A DNA stretch of 60,353 bases. It comes from Gaiellales bacterium (GTDB lineage: Bacteria > Actinomycetota > Thermoleophilia > Gaiellales > JAICJC01). A program made the translations under genes and the position numbers. The stretch lies in the NCBI GenBank assembly GCA_035473255.1, contig DATIOK010000209.1, forward strand, positions 1-60,353, in the 5' to 3' direction. Of this stretch, positions 1 to 12,475 are shown one piece after another. The notes below the pieces were generated by a model, which saw only the letters and a program-made list of their open reading frames with translations, made no database searches and was not told the DNA's origin. Positions within the stretch are counted from its first letter, which is position 1, and every line of letters starts with the position of its first letter.

Positions 1-643
1 CCAGCGCCCGCACCCGGCGGCGGCGGATCTCGGCCAGGCGGTCGGCGTCGATGGTCAGTCCCACGATCTTCCAGGGATCCACGGTGAACAGCGCCGGGGG
101 CGGGTCGATGCCCTTCACGATCGGGATGTTCGCTGCCATCAACCCCATGTAGCCGAGGTGCATCGAGGTCGGCGTCTTGGACGTGCGCGACACCCCCACC
201 AGCACCACGTCGGCCTGCTGCAGGTCGTCCGCGCCGCGGCCGTCGTCGTGCTTGACGGCGAACTCGATGGCGGCGATGCGCCGGAAGTACTGCGCGTCCA
301 GCGGGGCCTGGCGGCCGGGCACCTGCATCGCCTGCATGCCGGAGGCGGTCGTGATCGCGTTCAGCGCGGGGCCCAGCACGTCCAGCGCCACCAGCCGGTG
401 CTGCCGCGAGATCTCCACCACGGCCTCGCGCAGACCGGGATCGACCAGCGTGTAGAACACGGCGGCGCGGCGGCCGGTGGCCGCCTCCAGCGCGCGCGCC
501 AGCTGTTCCCGCGACTTCACCCGCGCGTGGCGGTGCAGCTCGATCTCGGAGTCGCCGAACTGCGACTGGGCCGCCCGCGCCACCCGTGCCGCCGTGTCCC
601 CGGTGGAGTCGGAGATGATGTGGATCTCGAGCGTGTCCGCCAC
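1..643 (-). CDS. ppsR: Pyruvate,water dikinase / PPDK regulatory kinase-pyrophosphorylase (DUF299 family), 3' end runs off the window
   Basis: Not in the ORF track (no stop in window). Manual translation from GTG 643: MADTLEIHIISDSTGDTAARVARAA...YFRRIAAIEFAVKHDDG...ADVVLVGVSRTSKTPTSMHL. SDSTG(E/D)T, HDDG and GVSRTSKTP are family motifs. Confidence 0.92.
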   Translation of the reverse strand, partial: MADTLEIHIISDSTGDTAARVARAAQSQFGDSEIELHRHARVKSREQLARALEAATGRRAAVFYTLVDPGLREAVVEISRQHRLVALDVLGPALNAITTASGMQAMQVPGRQAPLDAQYFRRIAAIEFAVKHDDGRGADDLQQADVVLVGVSRTSKTPTSMHLGYMGLMAANIPIVKGIDPPPALFTVDPWKIVGLTIDADRLAEIRRRRVRAL

Positions 644-650
644 GGCCCGG

Positions 651-656
651 ACTCTA
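651..656 (-). promoter_or_regulatory. Putative -10 hexamer TAGAGT, 7 nt before the ppsR GTG (leaderless-type)
   Basis: Minus strand reads gcggTAGAGTccgggccGTG; no Shine-Dalgarno sequence. Confidence 0.5.
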
Positions 657-694
657 CCGCCCGTCACCGCCGCGGGTGCGGTATACAAGCGCCC

Positions 695-2122
695 GTGCGC
701 GACGTTGTCGTGATCGGCGGTGGGGTGGTCGGCTGCGCGGTGGCCTGGCGGCTGTCGGGCACTGCCGCCCGCGTGACGCTGATCGAGGCCGCTCACGACC
801 TCTGCGAGGGCGCCTCCAAGGGCAACACCGGCATCGCCACCAGCGGCGGCGACTGCCATCCGGGAACGCTCGAGCTCGAGCTGGTGCGCCGGTCCAGCCC
901 CGGCTGGGAGGCGCTGTGCGCGCGCCTGGACACGCCCTTCCACCGCATCGGCACGCTGGCCGTGGCGCTGACCGAGGAGGACGAGCACCGCCTGCCCGAG
1001 CTCCTGCGCGACGCGCAGGACACCGGTGCGGCCGCGGAGATCGTGACGGGCGACCAGGCGCGCGCGCTGGAGCCGCTGATCAGCGAGCAGGCCCGCGCCG
1101 CGCTGCACTTTCCCGACGACGGCATCATCGACTCGATCCGCCTGACCATCGGGTACGCGGAGCTGGCCGCCCGAAACGGCGTCGACGTGCTGCGCGGCGC
1201 GCCGGTGCAATCGATCGAGCGCGACGGGGACCGGATCGTCGCGGTCACGGCCGGCGACCGGCGGATCGCGACCGGGTCGGTCGTGAACGCGGCCGGCGTC
1301 GAGGCGGACACCATCTCGCGGCTGGCCGGCGGCGAGCAGTTCCGGACGTGGCCGCGCCAGGGGCAGTACTGGCTGCTCGACCGCGAGCTGGGAGGCCGCT
1401 TCCGCAAGGTGGTGGGCGGCGTGCCGACACCGGTCACACGCGGCATCTATTGCGTACCGACCACCAACCGGTCGCTGCTGCTGGGACCCACTGCGGTCGA
1501 CCACGAGGACCGCAGCGACCGGGCGGTGGACACCGGGACGCTCGACCACGTGTTCGACGCGGCACAGCGGCTGGTGCCGTCGATCGGCCGCGAGCACGCG
1601 ATCAAGACGTTCGCCTCCAACCGTCCGGCCTCCGATCCCAGCTACCGGATCGCCGTCGACGCCAAGATCGCGAACCTGGTGCACGCGGCCGGTATCCGCT
1701 CGACGGGGGTGTCGTCCTCACCGGCCGTCGCCGAGATGGTGCGCGGGCTGCTGGAAGGGCTGGGCCTGCCGGTCGGCGATGAGCGGCCGGACGCGGTCAC
1801 CGAGCTGGAGCCGCTGCCGCGGCTGCTCGGGCATCCCAGCCCCGAGCAGCTGTTCGCCCGCGACTCGCGCTACGGCCAGGTGATCTGCGCCTGCGAGCAG
1901 GTGACGGCGGCCGAGATCGCAGCCGTGCACGGGATGGCCGTGCCTCCCAGCTCGCTCGAGGGCGTCCGCAAGCGCACCCGGGCGACGGGCGGTCGCTGTC
2001 AGGGCGCGTTCTGCCTGTCCGGCGTCTCGTTCCTGCATTCGCTGCACGCCGGCCGCCGCCCGCAGCAGATCGCCGTCTCGGAGCCCGACGCGACGCTGGG
2101 CGTGGGTACGGACGATGCCTGA
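695..2122 (+). CDS. FAD-dependent oxidoreductase with C-terminal BFD-like [2Fe-2S] domain (GlpA-like / LhgO family)
   Basis: Start reassigned to GTG 695 (VRDVVVIGGGVVG Rossmann motif); the upstream part of the tracked ORF is antisense to ppsR. ASKGNTGI, GIRSTGVSSSPAVA, and C-terminal VICACEQVT...RATGGRCQGAFC. Confidence 0.85.
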   Translation: MRDVVVIGGGVVGCAVAWRLSGTAARVTLIEAAHDLCEGASKGNTGIATSGGDCHPGTLELELVRRSSPGWEALCARLDTPFHRIGTLAVALTEEDEHRLPELLRDAQDTGAAAEIVTGDQARALEPLISEQARAALHFPDDGIIDSIRLTIGYAELAARNGVDVLRGAPVQSIERDGDRIVAVTAGDRRIATGSVVNAAGVEADTISRLAGGEQFRTWPRQGQYWLLDRELGGRFRKVVGGVPTPVTRGIYCVPTTNRSLLLGPTAVDHEDRSDRAVDTGTLDHVFDAAQRLVPSIGREHAIKTFASNRPASDPSYRIAVDAKIANLVHAAGIRSTGVSSSPAVAEMVRGLLEGLGLPVGDERPDAVTELEPLPRLLGHPSPEQLFARDSRYGQVICACEQVTAAEIAAVHGMAVPPSSLEGVRKRTRATGGRCQGAFCLSGVSFLHSLHAGRRPQQIAVSEPDATLGVGTDDA

Positions 2123-2918
2123 CCGCCCACCGGTCGCGATCGTCGGCGCCGGCATCACCGCCCTGGCCTGCGCGCATGCGCTGCGCGACGCCGCCGAGGT
2201 CACGGTGGTCGACCGCATCCCGGTGCCGGGTGGCGTGCACGGCTGGGAGGCTGCCGAGACCCGCGAGCTGGCACAGGCCTGCGGCGCGCGGATGCGGCTG
2301 GGCGAGACGGCGATCCGCTGGGACGGCCTGACGCTGCTCACGATCGGGCAGGACGGCCCGCAGCGAATGGGTGCCGCCGCGCTCGTGATCGCGACCGGCA
2401 CGCGGCCGCTGGGGCGCGCCGAGCTGGGCATCGCCGGCGGCCGCCCGGCCGGCATCGTGGCCGCAACGGTCGCCTGCCACCTGGCCGAGAACGGCCTGCT
2501 GGTGGGGCGGCGCCCGCTGATCGTGGGCGGCGGAGACTGGGCGATGCGCGCCGCGAGCGAGCTGCGCGCGGCCGGTGCCGAGCGGGCCACCCTGGTCTGC
2601 CCCGACGGGCTGCTGCGCGAACGCCCGGCGGACGATGCGGTGCACGTGCGCGAGCACGACAGCGTCGCGTCGGTCGCCGGCACGCCGCGGGTGCGCACGG
2701 CCACGCTCGCCTCGGGCGAGACGCTGGGGTGCGACGCAGTGGTGCTGGCCCACGGGGTGGCTGCGCTGCGCAACGTGGACGGCGCCGTCTGGGCGGGCGA
2801 CCGCGCGGTCTACGCGCAGCCACTGGCGGACCCGGCCACGGTGGAGCAGGCGCGAGCCGCCGGCACCGAGGCTGCCGCGGCTGTACGGTCACTGATCGAT
2901 CACAAGGAGCGTCCATGA
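2115..2918 (+). CDS. NAD(P)/FAD-dependent oxidoreductase (pyridine nucleotide-disulfide family), short form
   Basis: VAIVGAGITA, LVIATGTRP..GIAGGRPAGIV, second IVGGGD motif; overlaps the upstream gene by 8 nt. Confidence 0.75.
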   Translation: MPDRPPVAIVGAGITALACAHALRDAAEVTVVDRIPVPGGVHGWEAAETRELAQACGARMRLGETAIRWDGLTLLTIGQDGPQRMGAAALVIATGTRPLGRAELGIAGGRPAGIVAATVACHLAENGLLVGRRPLIVGGGDWAMRAASELRAAGAERATLVCPDGLLRERPADDAVHVREHDSVASVAGTPRVRTATLASGETLGCDAVVLAHGVAALRNVDGAVWAGDRAVYAQPLADPATVEQARAAGTEAAAAVRSLIDHKERP

Positions 2919-3130
2919 AGGTGACATCGCCAATCGGTGAGCTGCCGTTCGTCGTGCGCGGCGTCTCGCTACATGACGGGCACGTGGTGGTGGAGGGCGA
3001 GCTCGGCACCTGGCGGTCGCGGATCGAGGTCGGCGCGGAGGACCTGCCGATGCTCGGTCGCGCACTCCGCGGCCCGCTGGTCGCGGCCGGGCTGGTCCTG
3101 GCCGGCATCGCCCTGCTGCGCCGACGATGA
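2915..3130 (+). CDS. 71-aa hypothetical protein with C-terminal hydrophobic anchor
   Basis: AAGGAG RBS, ATGA overlaps at both ends; MKVTSPIGELPF...PLVAAGLVLAGIALLRRR. Confidence 0.7.
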   Translation: MKVTSPIGELPFVVRGVSLHDGHVVVEGELGTWRSRIEVGAEDLPMLGRALRGPLVAAGLVLAGIALLRRR

Positions 3131-4563
3131 CGATCCTGATCGGCGTCGACCAGGGCACCAGCGGCACCCGCGCCGTGGCCTTCGACGATCGTCTGCGCCC
3201 GCTCGGCGAGAGCTACCAGCCGGCCCACGTCAGCCATCCCCAGCCCGGCTGGATCGAGAAGGACGCCGACGAGACGGTGGCCACGGTGGAGCGCGCGCTG
3301 GGCGACCTGACCGCGCAACTGGACGGCGAGGTCTCCGCGGTCGGCTTCGACAACGAGGGCGAGACGGTGGTGGCGTGGGACGCTGAGACGCTGCGGCCGC
3401 TGGCGCCCGCGATCGTGTGGGGATCCCGACGCAGCCAGTCGATCGTGGAGCGGCTGGAGGCGGCCGGCCACGGCCCGCGCATCCAGGAGCTGTCCGGCCT
3501 GCCGCTCGACCCCTACTTCTCGGCCACCAAGATCCGCTGGTTGGTCGAGAACGACGACGCGGTCGCTGCGGCCGCGCGGGAGGGCCGCCTGCGCGCCGGA
3601 ACGCTGGACGCCTACGTCTGCGCTCGGCTCGGCGACGGCGCCCGCACCGAGCCGTCCACGGCCGGGCGCACGCAGCTGCAGGCGCTGGCCGCGCCCGGCA
3701 GCTGGCACCCTGAGCTGCTCGAGCTGCACGGCATCGACCCCGCCTGGCTGCCGCCGATCGGGCCCTCGGCGGGGCCGTTCGGCCGGCTGGCGGGCCTGCC
3801 GCTGCGCGCACTGCTGGTCGACCAGACCGCCTCCCTGGCCGGCCACGGCTGCCTGCTGCCGGGAATGGCGAAGGCCACCTACGGCACCGGCATCTTCCTG
3901 CTCCAGCAGGTCGGCGCCGCTCCACCCACCCAGACCGGCGGCTTGCTATCGGTGGTCGCCTGGGAGCTGACCGAGGGCCGGCCCAGCTACGCGCTTGACG
4001 GCGGCGTGTTCTCGGCCGGAACGGTGCTGACCTGGCTGCGAGACGGCCTCGGTGCGTTCCAGGATCCGGCGGAGAGCGAGGCGATGGTCAACTCGGTGCC
4101 GGATACCGACGGCGTCATGTTCCTGCCCGCGCTGGCCGGGATGGGCGCTCCCTGGTGGCGTGCCGACGCGCGGGCGGTGGTCGCCGGGATCACCGCCTCC
4201 ACGACCCGCGCCCACATCGTCCGTGCCGCCCTCGACGCGCTCTGCTTCCGCGTGCGCGACCTCGTCGACGCGTTGCCGGTGCGGCCGGACGTGCTGCGCG
4301 TCGACGGCGGCCTGACCGCGAACGGCTACCTCGTACAGCGTCAGGCCGACGTGCTGGACATGCCGGTGGAGGTGGCCGCGATGGCCGAGACGACCGCGCT
4401 CGGCGCGGCCGCCGCCGCGGGAGTCGGAGCAGGCCTGTTCACGCTTGACGACCTGGCGGAGCTGGCGGCGGGGGGACGGCGGTTCCAGCCGGGTGACGTG
4501 CGCACGGCCGGCGCCGACTACCTGACCTGGCGGCGCTTCGCCGAGCGGGCCTCGCTGTTGTAG
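3127..4563 (+). CDS. glpK: FGGY-family carbohydrate kinase, glycerol-kinase-like (substrate uncertain)
   Basis: VDQGTSGTRA, PQPGWIEKD, PYFSATKIRW, DQTASL, KATYGTGIF, PALAGMGAPWW, RVDGG, ETTALGAA. Glycerol-binding NQRET appears as NEGET. Confidence 0.8.
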   Translation: MTILIGVDQGTSGTRAVAFDDRLRPLGESYQPAHVSHPQPGWIEKDADETVATVERALGDLTAQLDGEVSAVGFDNEGETVVAWDAETLRPLAPAIVWGSRRSQSIVERLEAAGHGPRIQELSGLPLDPYFSATKIRWLVENDDAVAAAAREGRLRAGTLDAYVCARLGDGARTEPSTAGRTQLQALAAPGSWHPELLELHGIDPAWLPPIGPSAGPFGRLAGLPLRALLVDQTASLAGHGCLLPGMAKATYGTGIFLLQQVGAAPPTQTGGLLSVVAWELTEGRPSYALDGGVFSAGTVLTWLRDGLGAFQDPAESEAMVNSVPDTDGVMFLPALAGMGAPWWRADARAVVAGITASTTRAHIVRAALDALCFRVRDLVDALPVRPDVLRVDGGLTANGYLVQRQADVLDMPVEVAAMAETTALGAAAAAGVGAGLFTLDDLAELAAGGRRFQPGDVRTAGADYLTWRRFAERASLL

Positions 4564-6571
4564 CTACCCCGGCAGCTGCTCGAAGTCGCCGACCAGGCGC
4601 AGCGTCGAGGCCACGTCGGCCAGCAGCTTGAGACGGTTCCCGCGCACGGCCGGATCCTCGGCCATCACCATCACCTGCTCGAAGTACGCGTTGATCGGCT
4701 CCACCATCAACGCGGCCGCGTCCAGCGCGGATGCGTAATCGCGGCGTGCGGCGGCGTCGGCGATCTCGATGTCTGCCGCCGTCAGCGCCGCGCACAGCGC
4801 CCGCTCCGCGTCCATCTCGAACAGCGACGTGCGCACCTCGGAGGCCGTCTGCTCGGCGGCCCTGGCCGTGATCCGTATGCAGCGTCCGTAAGCGTCGCGG
4901 AGCGCCGACAGCCAGTCGGCTCCGCGGGCGTCGCGCAGCGCCCGGCAGAGGGCGGCCAGGGGCAGCGGCCCGGTCACACCGGAGCCGCGCGCGGCACGGA
5001 TCTCTTCGACGGTCACGCCCTCCTCGGCCATCAGCGGCTCGACCCGGTCGAGCACGAAGTCGACGGCGTCGGGCACCGCCTCGAGCGGCTTTCGGCGCAG
5101 CTCGTGGCCCTGCGACACCAGCATGTGCACCGACTCGGCCATCAGATCGACCAGACCCAGCTCGTAGCCGCGCTCGAGCGCGATCGCGACGATGCCGGCC
5201 GCGGCCCGGCGCAACCCGTAGGGGTCGCGGCTGCCTGTCGGCTGTGCGCCCAGAGCGAACGCCACGGCCACCGTGTCGGCCTTGTCGGAAACCGACAGCA
5301 GCGCGGCGCCCTCGTCCGTGGGCAGCGCCCCGCCCGCCTCGATCGGGAGGTGGTGGTCGGCGATCGCCTCGCACACGTCGGGTGGCTCCCCCGCATCGCG
5401 CGCATACAGCGACCCGGCGTACCCCTGCAGGTCGGAGAACTCGGCCACCAGGCTCGACACCAGGTCGGCCTTGCACAGCGCCGCCGCCCGCGCCACCGCC
5501 TCGCGCAGCGGCGGCTCGACCTCGACCCGGTCGCACAGCTGCCGCGATATCCCGCGCACCCGCTCAGCCTTGTCGGCCAGCGACCCCGCCCCCTCCAGGA
5601 AGCTGACGCGGGGCAGCTCGGCCAGCATCGCGGCGATGCCGCGGGCCCGGTCCCTGTCGTGCGCGAAGACGGCATCCTCCAGCCGCCCCACCAGCACCTC
5701 CTCGTTCCCGGCCGCGACCACCGCCGCGTCGCCGCCGTTCGCGACGAACGCGAAGCGGGCGTCGACGCGCCCCTCGCGGACGATCGGGAAGTAGCGCTGG
5801 TGGGACTGCATGGCGGTGATCGGGACGCGCTCGGGCAGCTCCAGGTAGCGCTCGTCGAACCGGCCTTCGAGCACCACCGGCCACTCCACCAGGTGGACGA
5901 CCTCGTCCAGCTTGCCCATCGGGTCGATCCACTCCCCGGCCGTGTTGAGTCCCTCCACGATCAGCTCCCGGCGCTCGGCGGCGTCGGCCAGCACGTGCGC
6001 GCCGCGCAGATCCTCCAGGTAGCTCGCGGCCGAGCGCACCCGGACTGCGCCCAGCGACCGGTGGCCACGGGACTCCCCGCCGCTGGCGACACCCGCCACC
6101 TCCATCTCCACCAACTCGTCGTCGAGCTTGACCACCAGCCATCGGATCGGACGCGAGAACCGGCCGCCCGGCCAGCGCATCGTCTTTGCGAACTGCAGCC
6201 CCGCCACGATGCGGTGCACGGCGTCCGGCACCAGCTCCACGGCCGGCGCGGCCCGGCCGTCGCTGACGGCCCACACGAAGCCCTCGCGCTGCTCCAGCTC
6301 GTCCACCGCCAGCCCGTGCTTTCGCGCGAACCCGGCCCTGGCCGCCTCCGGCGCGTCGGCGCGCGGGCCGCGCTGCCGCCTCGCGACGGCATCTCGCTGC
6401 GGCGGCACGCTCGCGATCGCGACCAGCCGCCTCGGGCCGACGTGGATGCGGGGGTCGCGCGACTCCAGCCCAGCTCCCGCGAGCGAGCGGGTCAGCAGCT
6501 CTGGTAGCTGGCGCTCGGCCTCGCGGCAGGCCGCCGCCGGCAGCTCCTCGCAGCCGATCTCGATCAGCAGG

Positions 6572-6579
<8 letters not shown>
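4564..6579 (-). CDS. glyS: Glycine--tRNA ligase beta subunit
   Basis: [14 protein letters not shown]...[71 protein letters not shown]. Confidence 0.96.
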
Positions 6580-7429
<850 letters not shown>

Positions 7430-7487: not shown

Positions 7488-8057
7488 ATGCGACGTGGCG
7501 GATACGTGCTTCTCCCCCTGCTGGTGCTGGCGGTGGCAGCCTGCGGCGCCCCCAGCGGCAAGGCGCTGGACACGAAGGTTGAGGCCGCCGTGGTGGCCCA
7601 GCAGGGCGGCCGGCAGGTCGTGTCATCCGTCGATTGCAGCGACCAGGCGCCGCCGGCCGATACGGTCGCGGGCGGGCTGGGCACGGTGGCCGCCGACCAC
7701 ACCTGCACCGTGAAGTTCAGCAACGGGATGCCCACCCAGGTGTGGGCGGTGAACGTGCTCGACCTGGGCGCGAGCCACCCGGTGCAGCTGCTCTACCGGA
7801 CCGACCACAACGGCGACGGCCGGCCGACCGCGACCGTCGACGTGGCGAAGGCCTTCTCGGCCGAGATGGCGCTCCTGAACGGCGGCACGGCGGCCAAGGC
7901 GCACTGCAGGGCGGGCTCGCCCGCAGCACCGGCCGGCTCGACCGCGTCGGCGGCGCCCGACCACGTCTGCAGCATCCGCATCCCGGGCCACGGCCGCGAG
8001 CGCTGGGCCGTGCGGATCCTGGGCAGCAACGTGCAGCTGCTGTTTCAGCTCGGCTGA
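7488..8057 (+). CDS. Putative lipoprotein with two tandem Cys-pair domains
   Basis: ATG 7488: MRRGG + hydrophobic stretch + lipobox VAAC (Cys19); internal duplication C..DHxC..WAV..L..VQLL. Confidence 0.72.
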   Translation: MRRGGYVLLPLLVLAVAACGAPSGKALDTKVEAAVVAQQGGRQVVSSVDCSDQAPPADTVAGGLGTVAADHTCTVKFSNGMPTQVWAVNVLDLGASHPVQLLYRTDHNGDGRPTATVDVAKAFSAEMALLNGGTAAKAHCRAGSPAAPAGSTASAAPDHVCSIRIPGHGRERWAVRILGSNVQLLFQLG

Positions 8058-8782
8058 AGGGTGCGCAGGCGAAAGCCTCCGTGGTGCGCGTAGGTCTCCT
8101 CGACCACCCGCAGCGCGCCGGCCGCGGCCTCCGGCGACAGCGCCACCGGCGCCATCGGGCGCTCCAGCAGTCCCTCGATGGCGGCGATCGCCCCGTCCGC
8201 CATCCGGAAGCCACCGCTCGCCACCATGCAGCCCGTGCACACGGCCCCGCCGGCCGCGGCCGAGAAACCGGCCAGCGGGCCGGCCGACCCGCACGATGCA
8301 CACGAATCGAGATGCGGCAGGTAGCCCGAGAGCGCCAGCAGCTTCAGCTGGAAGGCCAGTCCCAGGCCGTCGTGCTGGGGGTCCGAGGCGCGCTCGAGCG
8401 GCTCCGCGAGCAGCTCCAGAAACCGACAGAGTCCCTCGTAGGCACGCGGATTCGGCTCGGGCTCGGCGAACAGCTTCAGCACCGCCTCCGCCCCGATCTG
8501 GCCGACCGCCAGCGCGTAGCCGTCGGCCCGCACCTGCTCCTGCGAGTTGATGATGTCGGCGCCCGAGACGGTGTGCAGCTCGCCGCGGCCCTCGTGCAGG
8601 ATCAGCGCCGATCGGGTCAGTGGTTCCAGCCGCGCGCCGAACCGCGATCCGGTCTTGCGCACGCCCTTGGCGATCGCGTTCACGCGCCCCCGCTCGAGTG
8701 TGTACAGGTGCAGCACGCGGTCGGCCTCCGAGAAGCGGATCGATCGCAGCACCACGGCGTCGGTCTTGTAGCTTCGGCCCAC
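8045..8782 (-). CDS. recO: DNA repair protein RecO
   Basis: YKTDAVVLRSIRFSEADRVLHLYT..GRVNAIAKGVRKTGSRFGARLEP; zinc finger CASC...CTGC. Confidence 0.95.
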   Translation of the reverse strand: MGRSYKTDAVVLRSIRFSEADRVLHLYTLERGRVNAIAKGVRKTGSRFGARLEPLTRSALILHEGRGELHTVSGADIINSQEQVRADGYALAVGQIGAEAVLKLFAEPEPNPRAYEGLCRFLELLAEPLERASDPQHDGLGLAFQLKLLALSGYLPHLDSCASCGSAGPLAGFSAAAGGAVCTGCMVASGGFRMADGAIAAIEGLLERPMAPVALSPEAAAGALRVVEETYAHHGGFRLRTLQPS

Positions 8783-8788
8783 GTGTTC

Positions 8789-8794
8789 AGTCTA
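8789..8794 (-). promoter_or_regulatory. Putative -10 hexamer TAGACT, 6 nt before the recO GTG; its TAG is the ybaK stop codon
   Basis: Minus strand reads gccTAGACTgaacacGTG. Confidence 0.5.
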
Positions 8795-9262
8795 GGCCTC
8801 GGCGATGTCGCGCACGTCCGCGTCCGGCATCGCCCCAAGCAGGTCGTCCAGCGCCACCTCGAACACGGCGTTGGGCGTCCCGGCCGCGCACCAGACCGTC
8901 TGGAACCGCCGCAGCGAGCTGTCGACGACCGTGTGCAGCGGCCGGTCGTGGCCGAGCGGCGGAATTCCGCCGATGGCGTAGCCGGTCTGCTCCTTGACGT
9001 CTCGGCCGCGGGCCATCGAAACGCCCTCGCCCACCCGCTCCAGGTCGATCCGCCGGTCGCCGGCGCAGAGGCACAGCAGCAGCTCGCCGCTCGCGTCCTG
9101 CAGCACCACTGACTTCACGATCTGGCCCAGCTCGCAGCCGACCGCGTCGGCCGCCTCCACCGCCGTGCGCGTGGACTCCGATAGCTCCTGCGGGCGCACG
9201 TCCAGGCCCGCCGCCTGCGCGCGCTCCTGGAACCTCAGGGCCGTGGGGTGCATCTCGGACAT
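8792..9262 (-). CDS. YbaK/EbsC family aminoacyl-tRNA deacylase-like protein
   Basis: Start reassigned to ATG 9262: TRTAVEAADAVGCELGQIVKSVV, VKEQTGYAIGGIPPLGH, VWCAAGTPNAVF. Confidence 0.88.
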   Translation of the reverse strand: MSEMHPTALRFQERAQAAGLDVRPQELSESTRTAVEAADAVGCELGQIVKSVVLQDASGELLLCLCAGDRRIDLERVGEGVSMARGRDVKEQTGYAIGGIPPLGHDRPLHTVVDSSLRRFQTVWCAAGTPNAVFEVALDDLLGAMPDADVRDIAEA

Positions 9263-10059
9263 AGGTAGGTGCCCCGCTGGGCAACGCGGGTCTTGACGAT
9301 AACGGATCCGCAGCGCGGACACGGCTCGCCTGCGCGGTCGAAGACGTGGAAGCGCTCCTGCATCGAGCCGGGCGTCCCATCCACCGACCGGTACGTGTCG
9401 ATGCTGGCCCCCTGCGCGTCGATCCCGCGCTCGAGCACGGCGATCACGGCGTCGTGCACGCGGGCCGCTCGCACGGCGCCCAGCCTGCCGCCGGGGGTCA
9501 GCGGGTGCACCCGCGCCTCCCACAGTGCCTCGTCCGCGTAGATGTTGCCGACGCCGGCCACCACTCGCTGGTCGAGCAGCAACGCCTTCACCGGCGCCGT
9601 GCGCCCCCGCAGCGCCGCGCGCAGCTGCGCCGCCGTCCAGTCGCCACCCAGCGGCTCCGGCCCGACCCGGCCGCGCCAGTAGTCCTCGAGCCCGCCCGGC
9701 TCGATCAGCCGCATCGTGCCGAACCGCCGCTGGTCGCTGTAGAGCAGCCAGGTGCCGTCGTCCAGCTCGAACACCGCTCGCAGGTGCGGACGCTCCGTCA
9801 ACTCCGTCACGTGATGAAACCACCCGGTCATGCGCAGGTGGCAGACCAGCGTGCGCCCGTCGTCGAGCCCGACGGCCAGGTACTTGCCACGCCGCCCGAC
9901 CCCGGTCACGACCGCGCCCAGCAGCTCGTGCGCGACCGCCGCCGGATCGGCCGGCGCCGTCAGGCGGCCATCGCGGATGTCGACGCCGACCAGCTCCCGC
10001 CCGACCAGCACCTTCACCAACCCCCGCCGCACGGTCTCCACCTCCGGCAGCTCAGGCAT
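9235..10059 (-). CDS. mutM: Formamidopyrimidine-DNA glycosylase (Fpg)
   Basis: Start ATG 10059 MPELPEVETV; RRGKYL, HLRMTG, DQRRFG, H2TH motif LLDQRVVAGVGNIYADE, zinc finger CPRC...CPRC. Confidence 0.96.
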   Translation of the reverse strand: MPELPEVETVRRGLVKVLVGRELVGVDIRDGRLTAPADPAAVAHELLGAVVTGVGRRGKYLAVGLDDGRTLVCHLRMTGWFHHVTELTERPHLRAVFELDDGTWLLYSDQRRFGTMRLIEPGGLEDYWRGRVGPEPLGGDWTAAQLRAALRGRTAPVKALLLDQRVVAGVGNIYADEALWEARVHPLTPGGRLGAVRAARVHDAVIAVLERGIDAQGASIDTYRSVDGTPGSMQERFHVFDRAGEPCPRCGSVIVKTRVAQRGTYLCPRCTPRP

Positions 10060-11287
10060 CGACGTCCCCCAGCAGCAGCGGCTCCCGGTCGGCCGGCGCG
10101 TCGCCGATCTCGAAGCACGCCGCCACCGCATCCAGGTCGGCCTCGCCGCGGGCGTGCACCGTCGCCAGCGGCTCGCCCGCCTCGACACGGTCGCCGCGCT
10201 TGCGGTACACGAGGACGCCGACGGCGTGGTCGACGACGTCCTCCTTCGTGGCGCGGCCGGCCCCGAGCCGCATCACCTGCTCGCCGATGCTGCGGGCGTG
10301 ACAGCGCTGGACGACACCGGAGCGTGGCGCCGGCACCTCGACCACGAGCGGCGCCCGCGGCAGCGGGGCTTCGGGGTCGCCACCCTGCGCGGCCACCCAG
10401 CGCTGATAGCGCTCGTACGCCGCACCCGAGTCGAGCGCGCGGCGAACCACGGCCTCGTCGCCCGCCAGCACCGTGGCCTGGTGGACGCAGAGCTCCGTGA
10501 TGTCGGCCGGGCCCTGGCCGCGCAGCGTGTCCACCGCCTCGGCCACCTCCAGCGCGTCGCCGACGGCGGCGCCCAGCGGCTCGGACATGTTCGAGAGCAG
10601 CGCGCGCGTGTCGATGTCGTGGTCGCGCCCCAACCCCACCATCAGGCCGGCCAGCCGACGGGCGGCGTCGGCATCCGGCAGCAGCGCGCCCTCCCCCACC
10701 TTGACGTCGAGCAGCAGCCGCGACGCGCCGGCCGCCACCTTCTTCGACATGATGCTGGCGGCGATCAGCGGCAGGCTGGAGACGGTGGCGGTGGCGTCGC
10801 GGAGCGCGTACAGGCGACCGTCGGCCGGGGCCAGCTCCGGCGTCTGTCCGCACACCGCCACGCCGACCTGCTCGACCTGCCGGCGCATTCCCGCCAGGGA
10901 CAGCGACACGCGCATGCCCGGGATCGCCTCGAGCTTGTCGAGCGTCCCGCCCGTGTGCCCCAGCCCGCGTCCGCTCATCTTGGCGACCAGCACTCCGCAG
11001 GCGGCCACCAGCGGCGCCAGCACGAGCGTCGTCGAGTCGCCGACCCCGCCCGTCGAGTGCTTGTCGGCCACCGGCCACGGCCACGACACGCGCTGCCCGG
11101 ACGCGACCATCGCGTCCAGCAGCCCGCGCGTCTCTTCGTCGCTGAGGCCGTTCAGCACGACCGCCATCAGGAAGGCCGACAGCTGGTAGTCGGGCACGCC
11201 CGGCGCGACCATGGCGGCGATCTCGGCGGCCGACAGCGCTCCGCCGTCGCGCTTGCGCGCGATCAGGTCGGTGATTCGCTGGGCCAC
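10052..11287 (-). CDS. pdp: Pyrimidine-nucleoside (thymidine) phosphorylase
   Basis: DKHSTGGVGD, KMSGRGLGHTGGTLDKLEAIPG, PADGRLYALRDATATV, SIMSKK, DVKVGEGA. Confidence 0.93.
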   Translation of the reverse strand: MAQRITDLIARKRDGGALSAAEIAAMVAPGVPDYQLSAFLMAVVLNGLSDEETRGLLDAMVASGQRVSWPWPVADKHSTGGVGDSTTLVLAPLVAACGVLVAKMSGRGLGHTGGTLDKLEAIPGMRVSLSLAGMRRQVEQVGVAVCGQTPELAPADGRLYALRDATATVSSLPLIAASIMSKKVAAGASRLLLDVKVGEGALLPDADAARRLAGLMVGLGRDHDIDTRALLSNMSEPLGAAVGDALEVAEAVDTLRGQGPADITELCVHQATVLAGDEAVVRRALDSGAAYERYQRWVAAQGGDPEAPLPRAPLVVEVPAPRSGVVQRCHARSIGEQVMRLGAGRATKEDVVDHAVGVLVYRKRGDRVEAGEPLATVHARGEADLDAVAACFEIGDAPADREPLLLGDVDA

Positions 11288-12448
11288 TCAGATCACCGGG
11301 GTGCCCGGCAGGTCGGGATCGTGGCCGCCCACCAGATGCCGCTGCACGGTGGCTCCGATGTCGGCGAACGTGTCGCCGTCGTGGCGCCGCCCGCTGGCCG
11401 GCCTGCCCACGATGTGGGCCAGCAGCAGCCCGTACTCGCGCGAATGGTCGGTGGAGGCCGTGGTGGGATCGCAGCCGTGATCCGAGGTCAGCACCAGCAG
11501 GTCTCCGTGCCGCAGCGCGGCCATCAGCCGCGGCAGCTCCTCGTCGAACTCGCGGAGGCAGTCGGCGAACCCGGCGGGGTCGTTGCGGTGGCCCCAGATC
11601 ATGTCGGTCTCGACCAGGTTGGTGAACACCAGGTCGCCGTCCTCCGAATCGCGGAGCCGGGCGATCGTGCGGGCGATGCCCTGGCCGTTCGACTCGGTCG
11701 GGCTGGAGGTGTCCACATCCTGCCCGGCGAAGATGTCCGAGATCTTGCCGACCCCGTGCACCGTCACGCCGCCCGCGCGCATGCGCTGCAGGTGGTTCGG
11801 CCGCGGCGGCAGCAGCGAGAAATCGTGGCGGCGGGGCGTGCGCACGAACGACCCCGGCTCGCCCTCGAACGGCCGCGCGATCACCCGCCCCACGGCGAGA
11901 TCTCCGGTCAGCATCTCGCGTGCGGTGCGGCAGGCCGCGTACAGCTCCTCCAGCGGCACCGTCTGCTCGTGCGCCGCCACCTGGAACACGCTGTCGGCGG
12001 ACGTGTACACGATCCAGTCGCCGCTGCGCTGGTGCTGCTCCCCCAGCCGCTCGATGATCTCGGTGCCGGAGGCGGCCACGTTGCCGATCACGCCGCGGCC
12101 GGTCGCCTCGCTGAAGCGGTCGAGCAGCTCCTTCGGAAAGCCGTCGGGGAAGGTCGGGAATGGCTCGGTGATGATGCCCATCATCTCCCAGTGCCCGGCG
12201 GTGGTGTCCATCCCGAGGCTGCGCTCGGCCAGCCGGCCCCACACGGCCGGGGCATCCGCGCGCGGCGGGCACCCGGCCAGCGGCAACACGTTGCCCAGCC
12301 CCAACTGTTGCAGCGCCGTCAGCTCGAGGCCGCCGACCGCCTCAGCCACGTGCCCGAGCGTGTTCGACCCGGCCGTGCCGAACCGGTCGGCGTCCGGCAG
12401 GTCGCCGACCCCGACGGCGTCCAGCACGATCACGCAGGCACGGGCCAT
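11288..12448 (-). CDS. deoB: Phosphopentomutase
   Basis: ATG 12448 chosen (TAGATT 7 nt upstream). VIVLDAVGVG, DTTAGHWE, YTSADSVFQVAAHE, GRVIARPF, NLVETD..WGHRND, SDHGCDP, DHSREY. Confidence 0.95.
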   Translation of the reverse strand: MARACVIVLDAVGVGDLPDADRFGTAGSNTLGHVAEAVGGLELTALQQLGLGNVLPLAGCPPRADAPAVWGRLAERSLGMDTTAGHWEMMGIITEPFPTFPDGFPKELLDRFSEATGRGVIGNVAASGTEIIERLGEQHQRSGDWIVYTSADSVFQVAAHEQTVPLEELYAACRTAREMLTGDLAVGRVIARPFEGEPGSFVRTPRRHDFSLLPPRPNHLQRMRAGGVTVHGVGKISDIFAGQDVDTSSPTESNGQGIARTIARLRDSEDGDLVFTNLVETDMIWGHRNDPAGFADCLREFDEELPRLMAALRHGDLLVLTSDHGCDPTTASTDHSREYGLLLAHIVGRPASGRRHDGDTFADIGATVQRHLVGGHDPDLPGTPVI

Positions 12449-12475
12449 CCCGGGCAATCTAGATGACCCTCAGCG

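Follow-up and report, generated by a model that had tools for sequence, protein, structure and literature searches.

A conserved kinase–dehydrogenase cassette in Gaiellales with an orphan 71-residue subunit as proposed membrane tether and a probable substrate other than glycerol

The 60,353-nucleotide window analysed here opens contig C209 of a Gaiellales metagenome-assembled genome (MAG; 3.2 Mb, 90% complete), and close to its first base lies a cassette of four genes (g1–g4) that is probably an accessory catabolic operon, composed of a GlpK-derived kinase and a membrane-tethered, three-subunit dehydrogenase. At a probability of roughly 0.55, we favour a reading in which the kinase works with a tethered, non-bifurcating FngA-type dehydrogenase on a preferred substrate other than glycerol or glycerol-3-phosphate (G3P). 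Such a substrate is made more likely by the altered pocket of the kinase (Gln82Glu and Arg83Gly), by the loss of the catalytic histidine in g1 together with a change at the lysine next to the substrate, and by the canonical GlpK and GlpD that the genome already possesses elsewhere. The cassette comprises the following genes:

g1, 695–2122, plus strand: GTG start, 475 aa; FngA/GlpTk-type FAD dehydrogenase with a C-terminal BFD [2Fe-2S] domain
g2, 2115–2918, plus strand: 267 aa; minimal flavoprotein with two dinucleotide-binding domains, a short relative of FngB
g3, 2915–3130, plus strand: 71 aa; cysteine-free orphan subunit, proposed membrane tether
g4, 3127–4563, plus strand: 478 aa; GlpK-clade FGGY kinase of the Gly83 sub-clade

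Successive genes overlap by 8, 4 and 4 bases, third-position GC of at least 0.9 tracks exactly these four frames, and Pfam assigns DAO plus Fer2_BFD to g1, Pyr_redox_2 to g2, nothing to g3, and FGGY_N plus FGGY_C to g4. Coordinates, overlaps, codon-position GC and domains thus bear out the four tightly overlapping genes described in a first-pass annotation of this DNA, which had also called the operon atypical in composition. The latter holds for the set of genes and fails for the bases, as the cassette has the same GC content as its surroundings in the window (73–76%), and an anomalous base composition was rejected on this ground. The neighbourhood search which that annotation proposed for the four-gene cassette showed the gene order to be shared, at identities of 53–94%, by at least 13 genomes of the same Gaiellales family. 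Orthologues of g2 were found in 19 of the 24 other genomes sampled from the family; among 14 loci drawn from the genomes that matched g2 best, the order ppsR / g1-g2-g3-g4 / glyS is present in ten, and three more retain the complete cassette. All four are real, conserved genes.

Clusters in which a DAO/BFD protein, a flavoprotein, a DUF1667 protein and a glycerol kinase are combined have been described as GlpTk-NOX-MOX (PMC11962113) and were renamed FngABC in 2026, when they were defined as a new electron-bifurcating family (PMC13689815). According to the same paper, the FngABC enzyme of P. furiosus couples the oxidation of G3P and of reduced ferredoxin to the reduction of NAD+, and an 'FngAB' group without FngC, found mainly in actinomycetes, is deemed non-bifurcating and of uncertain function, with the suggestion that it works reductively (Schut et al. 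2026); in the sections consulted, that paper contains no description of a third small subunit of FngAB. The earlier statement that clusters of a GlpA-like protein, an oxidoreductase, a DUF1667 protein and GlpK oxidise G3P accords with these reports. Judged by its sequence, the cassette is a stripped-down relative of archaeal and clostridial FngABC, of the FngAB type: an FngA homologue stands beside an FngB homologue, and FngC is absent. As in FngABC (P. furiosus PF2005–2007, T. kodakarensis, T. maritima), the catalytic subunit joins DAO to a four-cysteine BFD domain, the next gene encodes a Pyr_redox_2 flavoprotein, and a GlpK-clade kinase belongs to the operon. Unlike FngABC, g2 has 267 aa rather than the ~420 aa of FngB and belongs to a small family of its own; the DUF1667 [4Fe-4S] subunit is missing, with the 71-aa g3 and its hydrophobic tail in its stead; and Thr replaces the catalytic histidine of g1, as Gly83 does the arginine of the kinase. 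Since the cassette lacks DUF1667/FngC and g3 has no cysteine, the ferredoxin-linked bifurcation of FngABC would be impossible here; DUF1667 (PF07892) was not found anywhere in the 90% complete genome.

Active sites of the dehydrogenase and the kinase

The product of g1 matches DAO (E = 1.9e-67) and Fer2_BFD (E = 5.2e-07) in Pfam, where no DAO_C domain was found. Type-2 GlpO (NF033460) is its top NCBIfam model at 191.7 bits against a cut-off of 460, and the GlpA model gives 119 bits against 553; the missing DAO_C domain and the NF033460 score place g1 outside GlpD and GlpO. The closest solved relative of the catalytic domain is the GlpO of Mycoplasma pneumoniae (MpGlpO; 4X9M, E = 9e-33), to which g1 adds the BFD domain and partner subunits. 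Cys398, Cys400, Cys435 and Cys440 of the BFD domain are invariant and spaced C-x-C...C-x4-C, the pattern given for FngA in PMC13689815.

The substitutions in the catalytic domain set the cassette apart from conventional enzymes. Thr49 of g1 replaces the catalytic histidine of the hHtG motif, which corresponds to His51 of MpGlpO, the proposed base (PMC10726252). This histidine is present in all 51 conventional FngA-like enzymes and in none of the 19 enzymes encoded by g1-g2-g3 trios (trio enzymes), 18 of which carry Thr, Asn or Cys instead; in the nineteenth (G033), one alignment places Val at this position and a second one a gap. The second change concerns Lys258 of MpGlpO, which lies next to the substrate. 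At the corresponding position, 18 of the 19 trio enzymes have Arg or His (Arg in g1), against Lys in 50 of the 51 conventional ones. Five more columns separate the two groups (P242G, L252Y, G259R, G308A/S and L309N), while Arg310 of g1 is kept. In the comparison with MpGlpO, the equivalents of Arg320 and Ser348 are conserved. Separately from the trios, two actinobacterial FngA paralogues beside full-length FngB carry Cys (G199, L041) and Asn (G071, L051) at the histidine position and share an insertion, DTLEFRPEYH; they may represent another specificity switch, within the conventional family.

GlpK is the best family of g4, yet both curated cut-offs are missed (TIGR01311, 424.4 bits against 590.35; NF000756, 393.7 against 498). 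The kinase has the two-domain FGGY_N and FGGY_C architecture and is ~40% identical over its full length to the GlpK proteins of E. coli and T. thermophilus (1GLA, 2DPN), from which it differs in Glu82 and Gly83, in a VDQTASLAG motif and in having no glpF neighbour. In alignment with E. coli GlpK, Gln82 becomes Glu and Arg83 becomes Gly, such that NQRET reads NEGET; all cassette kinases share NEGET, and VDQTASLAG stands in them where GlpK has GDQQAALFG. The signature residues Arg83, Glu84, Tyr135, Asp245 and Phe270 are reported to be identical across all GlpK clusters (PMC3245297); g4 and its orthologues keep four of the five, with Gly at position 83 throughout. In a quick maximum-likelihood tree, the NQGET, NEGET, HQGES and NQGES forms make up one Gly83 clade apart from NQRET, with a support of 99 in the SH-like approximate likelihood ratio test (SH-aLRT). 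An FngA/GlpA-like dehydrogenase occurs within 2.5 kb at 36 of 54 Gly83 loci versus 2 of 15 Arg83 loci, in a biased sample of related loci. The exchange of Arg83 for Gly was considered and rejected as proof, by itself, of a new substrate: it defines the whole clade and occurs beside His-bearing dehydrogenases. The sources mostly annotate the Gly83 kinases of the metagenome contigs (loci L058–L137; e.g. L059:7995–9491 and L079:7944–9464) as glycerol kinase, and these usually adjoin a DAO-type dehydrogenase; on the HQGES branch, genes for choline/ethanolamine-type kinase, aminotransferase, PALP and dimethylglycine-dehydrogenase-like proteins lie nearby.

On these alignments, the active-site deviations of g1 and g4 are real and correlated. 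They are accompanied by a canonical GlpK on contig C130, which has NQRET, scores 561 against the NF000756 cut-off of 498, and sits among MFS genes outside any glp operon. A GlpD with DAO_C is encoded on contig C109, adjoining a phosphoesterase, and the genome also has three MIP channels.

Partner subunits and reuse of the trio

The Pyr_redox_2 match of g2 (E = 5.5e-11) conceals a small and distinct family. A full HMMER pass over 1.84 billion representative proteins returned only 284 clusters of g2 relatives, mostly 255–300 aa long, and proteins of FngB length (~420 aa) gave only weak E-values in it; when 400 genomes of the phylum were searched, FngB proteins of 420 aa aligned to positions 4–219 of the g2 model only. 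Given this limited similarity and the separate family, the view of g2 as a truncated FngB was rejected. The AlphaFold model (AF2; mean predicted local distance difference test, pLDDT, 95.5) predicts a fold of two dinucleotide-binding domains like that of thioredoxin reductases and of BphA4 and TodA, which are ferredoxin reductases, and g2 carries a second dinucleotide-binding motif. Some homologues bear the JGI label 'D-hydroxyproline dehydrogenase subunit alpha'. A g2–g3 fusion was sought among the longer homologues, of which the 325-aa P0127 resembles a frameshift read-through instead.

The third gene encodes a conserved orphan subunit that is newly recognised here. No Pfam or NCBIfam family matched it, which sets it apart from DUF1667 and from CoxG (PF06240) and other SRPBCC proteins; it is also about half the size of CoxG. 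It is free of cysteine, and its C-terminal helix is hydrophobic: the AF2 model (pLDDT 88.9) predicts a four-stranded beta sheet (residues 2–39) followed by two helices, of which the first is short and the second (52–70) hydrophobic. No fold match rose above noise (Foldseek E of at least 0.16; best VIA Z 4.3, to COMM domains), and the Atlas returned only unnamed actinobacterial clusters. Homologues form 251 clusters at 90% identity; among the best 120 of these, nearly all are 70–75 aa long, and the few named ones come from Gaiellales. Ser5-Pro6, Gly8, Gly31, Trp33, Asp43, Pro45 and Pro54 are invariant, giving the motif SPIG...LGAWRS...D-P.

The trio g1-g2-g3 recurs with other kinases. In another Gaiellales family (G033), it is followed by a xylulokinase-like (XylB-like) FGGY kinase, with pyruvate kinase, a DeoR/GlpR-type regulator and a divergent sugar-type ABC transporter in the vicinity. 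In Mycolicibacterium vanbaalenii (L055:4158–14434), the trio precedes a class-II aldolase, a HAD hydrolase, EutH, an APH/choline-type kinase and a transaldolase-like protein, and it is present as well in M. austroafricanum (DSM 44191) and a Nocardiaceae MAG; the small protein of these trios has SP-G...LGAWRS...D-P and a hydrophobic tail, as g3 does. A further Mycobacteriales locus (G694, L146:5623–11820) has the order DeoR / GlpK-like NQGES kinase, dehydrogenase, short flavoprotein, small protein, EutH, in which the dehydrogenase has Cys in place of the histidine and EutH scores 529 bits, just under the equivalog cut-off. The short flavoprotein occurs in 2 of 301 sampled genomes of Mycobacteriales. 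As a side observation, the M. vanbaalenii cluster also has a LysR regulator and an rve integrase nearby, with related loci at L056 and L057, and it may be a horizontally acquired amino-alcohol pathway.

The nearest relatives of g4 outside Gaiellales (50–53% identical, NQGET) stand behind a 745–801-aa protein and then CoxG. The long protein is a natural fusion of a g1-like part (35% identity, with the histidine and the BFD cysteines) and, in its last ~280 aa, a g2-like flavoprotein:

L059:5040–7445, L063:5270–7507 and L100:4654–6999: g1-g2 fusions, followed directly by CoxG and then a Gly83 kinase in L059 and L063

In position, g3 corresponds to the CoxG of these sister loci, an analogy of place that implies no homology. 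CoxG has been shown experimentally to recruit the G3P dehydrogenase (G3PDH) of Sulfolobus to the membrane (PMC11962113). We propose that g3 acts as a tether in the manner of CoxG in Sulfolobus and, by analogy, in the nearest relatives. The Sulfolobus acidocaldarius system (PMC11962113) resembles the cassette in the order of its genes for kinase, FAD dehydrogenase and small anchor, and in the presence of a second paralogous set beside another glycerol route. It differs in a G3PDH that has neither an Fe-S domain nor a second flavoprotein and in a kinase described as a classical glycerol kinase (GK), whereas g3 is no CoxG/SRPBCC protein.

Mechanism, substrate and rival readings

From the domains observed in the four products, we infer a path for the electrons, the tethering by g3 and a substrate other than G3P. 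The kinase g4 would phosphorylate a small glycerol-like alcohol, and the FAD of g1 would oxidise the resulting phosphate ester. Electrons would pass from the [2Fe-2S] cluster of g1 to the FAD of g2, and from g2 to the respiratory quinone pool. The beta domain of g3 would dock on the enzyme, with the C-terminal hydrophobic helix holding the complex at the membrane.

Several observations weigh against this reading. The dehydrogenase retains 35 of 47 conserved columns as well as Arg310, which leaves oxidation of G3P possible, and g4 keeps Glu84, Trp103, Tyr135, Asp245 and Phe270. Most Gly83 kinases are paired with His-bearing dehydrogenases, and since Gly83 is clade-wide and occurs beside such enzymes, it says little when taken alone. 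The cassette contains neither a transporter nor a regulator gene. It is also dispensable, as follows from its erosion in one close relative and the frameshifted kinases in three assemblies. The hydrophobic stretch of g3 spans ~15–17 residues with Arg on both sides, and the helix could instead serve contacts between proteins, membrane insertion and topology being predictions. Likewise, the quinone is a presumed acceptor, and g2 could use NAD(P).

One rival reading is an ordinary second glycerol pathway, in which g4 would be a glycerol kinase isoenzyme and g1–g3 a membrane-bound G3PDH for other conditions. We regard this as possible, albeit doubtful on balance. No other family matches g4 nearly as well as GlpK (424 bits), whose signature residues it retains at four of five positions, and the best match of g1 is the type-2 G3P oxidase, with Arg310 kept and a conservative exchange of Lys258 for Arg. 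Paralogous GK/G3PDH pairs (two sets in S. acidocaldarius) and a diversity of anchors are documented (PMC11962113), and the order dehydrogenase–CoxG–kinase is found in sister loci. However, the cut-offs for GlpK and GlpO/GlpA are missed by wide margins, and neither Arg83 nor the catalytic histidine is present, an absence that is conserved. No MIP/GlpF was found by tblastn beside any of 80 related loci, a probe that is non-discriminating because the canonical-kinase loci among them gave no hit either. The neighbourhoods of the Gly83 clade are amine- rather than glycerol-related.

The first-pass annotation had suspected a kinase/dehydrogenase pathway for another polyol on the strength of deviations in three of the four parts. 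The deviations proved to be real and to go further than claimed: g4 falls below the cut-offs and has Gly83, g2 forms its own family, g3 is not DUF1667, and g1 lacks the histidine as well. Together with the separate GlpK and GlpD, these correlated deviations partly sustain the idea of another substrate, but not its identification as a polyol, as the amine-related contexts fit at least as well. For a polyol, precedent exists in Brucella, where the FGGY kinase EryA and the FAD-dependent, GlpD-like erythritol-phosphate dehydrogenase EryB serve a substrate other than glycerol; by description, EryA lies outside the GlpK clade, and EryB is of GlpD type without a BFD domain or partner subunits. EryA is listed in PMC3245297. 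An amino alcohol would fit the genomic contexts at least as well as a polyol, a pointer that comes from EutH, amino-acid permeases, APH/choline-type kinases and aminotransferases recurring near related modules. The neighbours of two Gly83 groups, tabulated from crude gene calls in few related lineages, are as follows:

NQGET neighbours (84 open reading frames [ORFs] at 13 loci): DAO, BFD, Pyr_redox_2, COXG (5), DeoR (3), AA_permease (3), DUF1667 (2), EutH (1)
HQGES neighbours, first part (92 ORFs at 15 loci): DAO (15); PALP, class I/II aminotransferase and APH/choline kinase (6 each)
HQGES neighbours, second part (same 92 ORFs at 15 loci): GCV_T + FAO_M (5), AA_permease (5), aldehyde dehydrogenase (3), Gln-synthetase + C26 peptidase (2)

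In its specific form, which is tentative and in our judgement rather unlikely, the preferred reading becomes an amino-alcohol pathway: g4 would phosphorylate a glycerol-sized amino alcohol such as serinol, 3-amino-1,2-propanediol or an ethanolamine-like compound. The His-less g1 might then oxidise the C–N bond of the phosphate ester, releasing ammonium and leaving a triose phosphate (or phosphoaldehyde). Oxidation of C–N bonds by enzymes of the same architecture is the chemistry of the glycine, D-amino-acid, opine and proline dehydrogenases. The histidine is lost in all trio enzymes, and amine-oxidising members of the DAAO family are likewise without it, as an alignment with glycine oxidase illustrates. 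The ThiO model scores higher for trio enzymes (119–137 bits; g1 137, below the cut-off) than for one conventional enzyme (85 bits), and the exchanges Gln82Glu and Arg83Gly take a positive charge from the pocket motif of the kinase and add a negative one. EutH lies beside both Mycobacteriales trios, one of which also has an APH/choline-type kinase, and the Gly83 neighbours include AA_permease, EutH, APH/choline kinase, aminotransferases, PALP, DMGDH-like proteins and the pair of Gln-synthetase and C26 peptidase. Heteromeric amine dehydrogenases with DAO, Pyr_redox_2 and small [2Fe-2S] parts (HcnABC, opine oxidase, D-hydroxyproline dehydrogenase and archaeal proline dehydrogenase) would share the logic of the subunits and the absence of the hydroxy-acid-type catalytic histidine with the trio; they are, however, presumably less similar to it in sequence than GlpO and FngA are, and are not known to have a kinase partner or a tail-anchored subunit. 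The signs of an amino alcohol are all indirect. Counting against it, amine-related genes do not adjoin the cassette in Gaiellales, His-bearing dehydrogenases are the partners of most Gly83 kinases, and the neighbour lists carry the limits stated above; the literature searched yielded nothing specific on a serinol or EutH-linked pathway of such a kind. That the Gly83 kinases act on amino alcohols, and that the trio deaminates the phosphorylated products as a membrane-tethered flavoprotein dehydrogenase of a new type, is put forward as a rather unlikely proposal; if true, it would constitute an undescribed route in soil actinobacteria, by which amino alcohols are phosphorylated and then oxidatively deaminated into triose-phosphate metabolism.

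Operation in the opposite direction, as proposed for FngAB by Schut et al. (PMC13689815), would have g2 take NAD(P)H and g1 reduce a keto-sugar phosphate. The absence of FngC, the second dinucleotide-binding motif of g2 and its fold like those of ferredoxin and thioredoxin reductases would agree with this. Nonetheless, we consider it improbable: the kinase in the operon and the transporters and catabolic regulators of related trios fit catabolism, and a soluble reductase needs no membrane tether. Least credible is a decaying, functionless remnant, for although the cassette is eroded in G012 and the kinase frameshifted in G011, G019 and G024, the frames in the window are all intact with strong codon bias, the motifs are invariant across 53–94% identity, the frameshifts may be assembly errors, and matching contigs occur, as weak evidence, in soil metatranscriptomes.

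The reading we prefer, a kinase and tethered dehydrogenase for a substrate other than glycerol, carries consequences beyond this locus. At least one FngAB lineage would be an enzyme of three subunits, in which a conserved, tail-anchored protein that had escaped notice joins a minimal second flavoprotein, and in which the active site is changed; in distant actinobacteria the same module turns up with other kinases and with EutH transporters. A further outcome is a large Gly83 clade, at present annotated together with GlpK, whose genomic company (FAD dehydrogenases throughout and, in one sub-clade, amine-metabolism genes as well) suggests another substrate. Confirmation would revise many 'glycerol kinase' labels that were assigned automatically in soil metagenomes and add another mode of membrane anchoring for G3PDH-type enzymes, and a new amino-alcohol or polyol pathway might emerge. 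Direct testing is possible because M. austroafricanum DSM 44191, which carries the trio, is culturable.

Flanking genes and side observations

The cassette is bordered by the following features:

2–643, minus strand: ppsR-like gene, divergent from g1 and truncated by the contig start
644–694: intergenic region of 51 bp that separates g1 from the divergent ppsR-like gene and is presumed to hold the promoter
4564–7429, minus strand: glyS/glyQ, downstream of the cassette and convergent with it
7634–9112, plus strand, and 9830–12466, plus strand: long ORFs of 492 and 878 aa, with no Pfam match

The ppsR-like gene is of the pyruvate phosphate dikinase / PEP synthase regulatory protein type, as identified by its sequence motif alone. 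A scan of positions 400–4900 found no sigma-70 consensus promoter and no terminator, and a promoter is only presumed to lie within 644–694. The genes glyQ and glyS specify a two-subunit (alpha/beta) glycyl-tRNA synthetase in an actinobacterium, and their synteny with the cassette is family-wide. The two long ORFs may be spurious frames of high-GC DNA or uncharacterised genes.

In a close relative (G012, L032:4800–7200), the cassette is reduced to fragments between an intact ppsR (100% identity) and an intact glyS (96%), and in three other assemblies (G011, G019 and G024; L021, L025 and L026) the kinase is frameshifted; this may be real decay or may reflect long-read indels or assembly errors. 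Contigs from soil metatranscriptomes, 95–99% identical, cover the cassette at a flat depth equal to that of the flanks, which is no proof of expression since DNA carry-over is possible. Elsewhere in the genome, a XylB-like FGGY kinase, whose 328 bits fall short of the XylB cut-off, is encoded on contig C55:14543–18130 (L019:4543–8130) together with a Zn-dependent alcohol dehydrogenase and an amidotransferase-like protein; the group is a candidate for a separate polyol route in the same organism.

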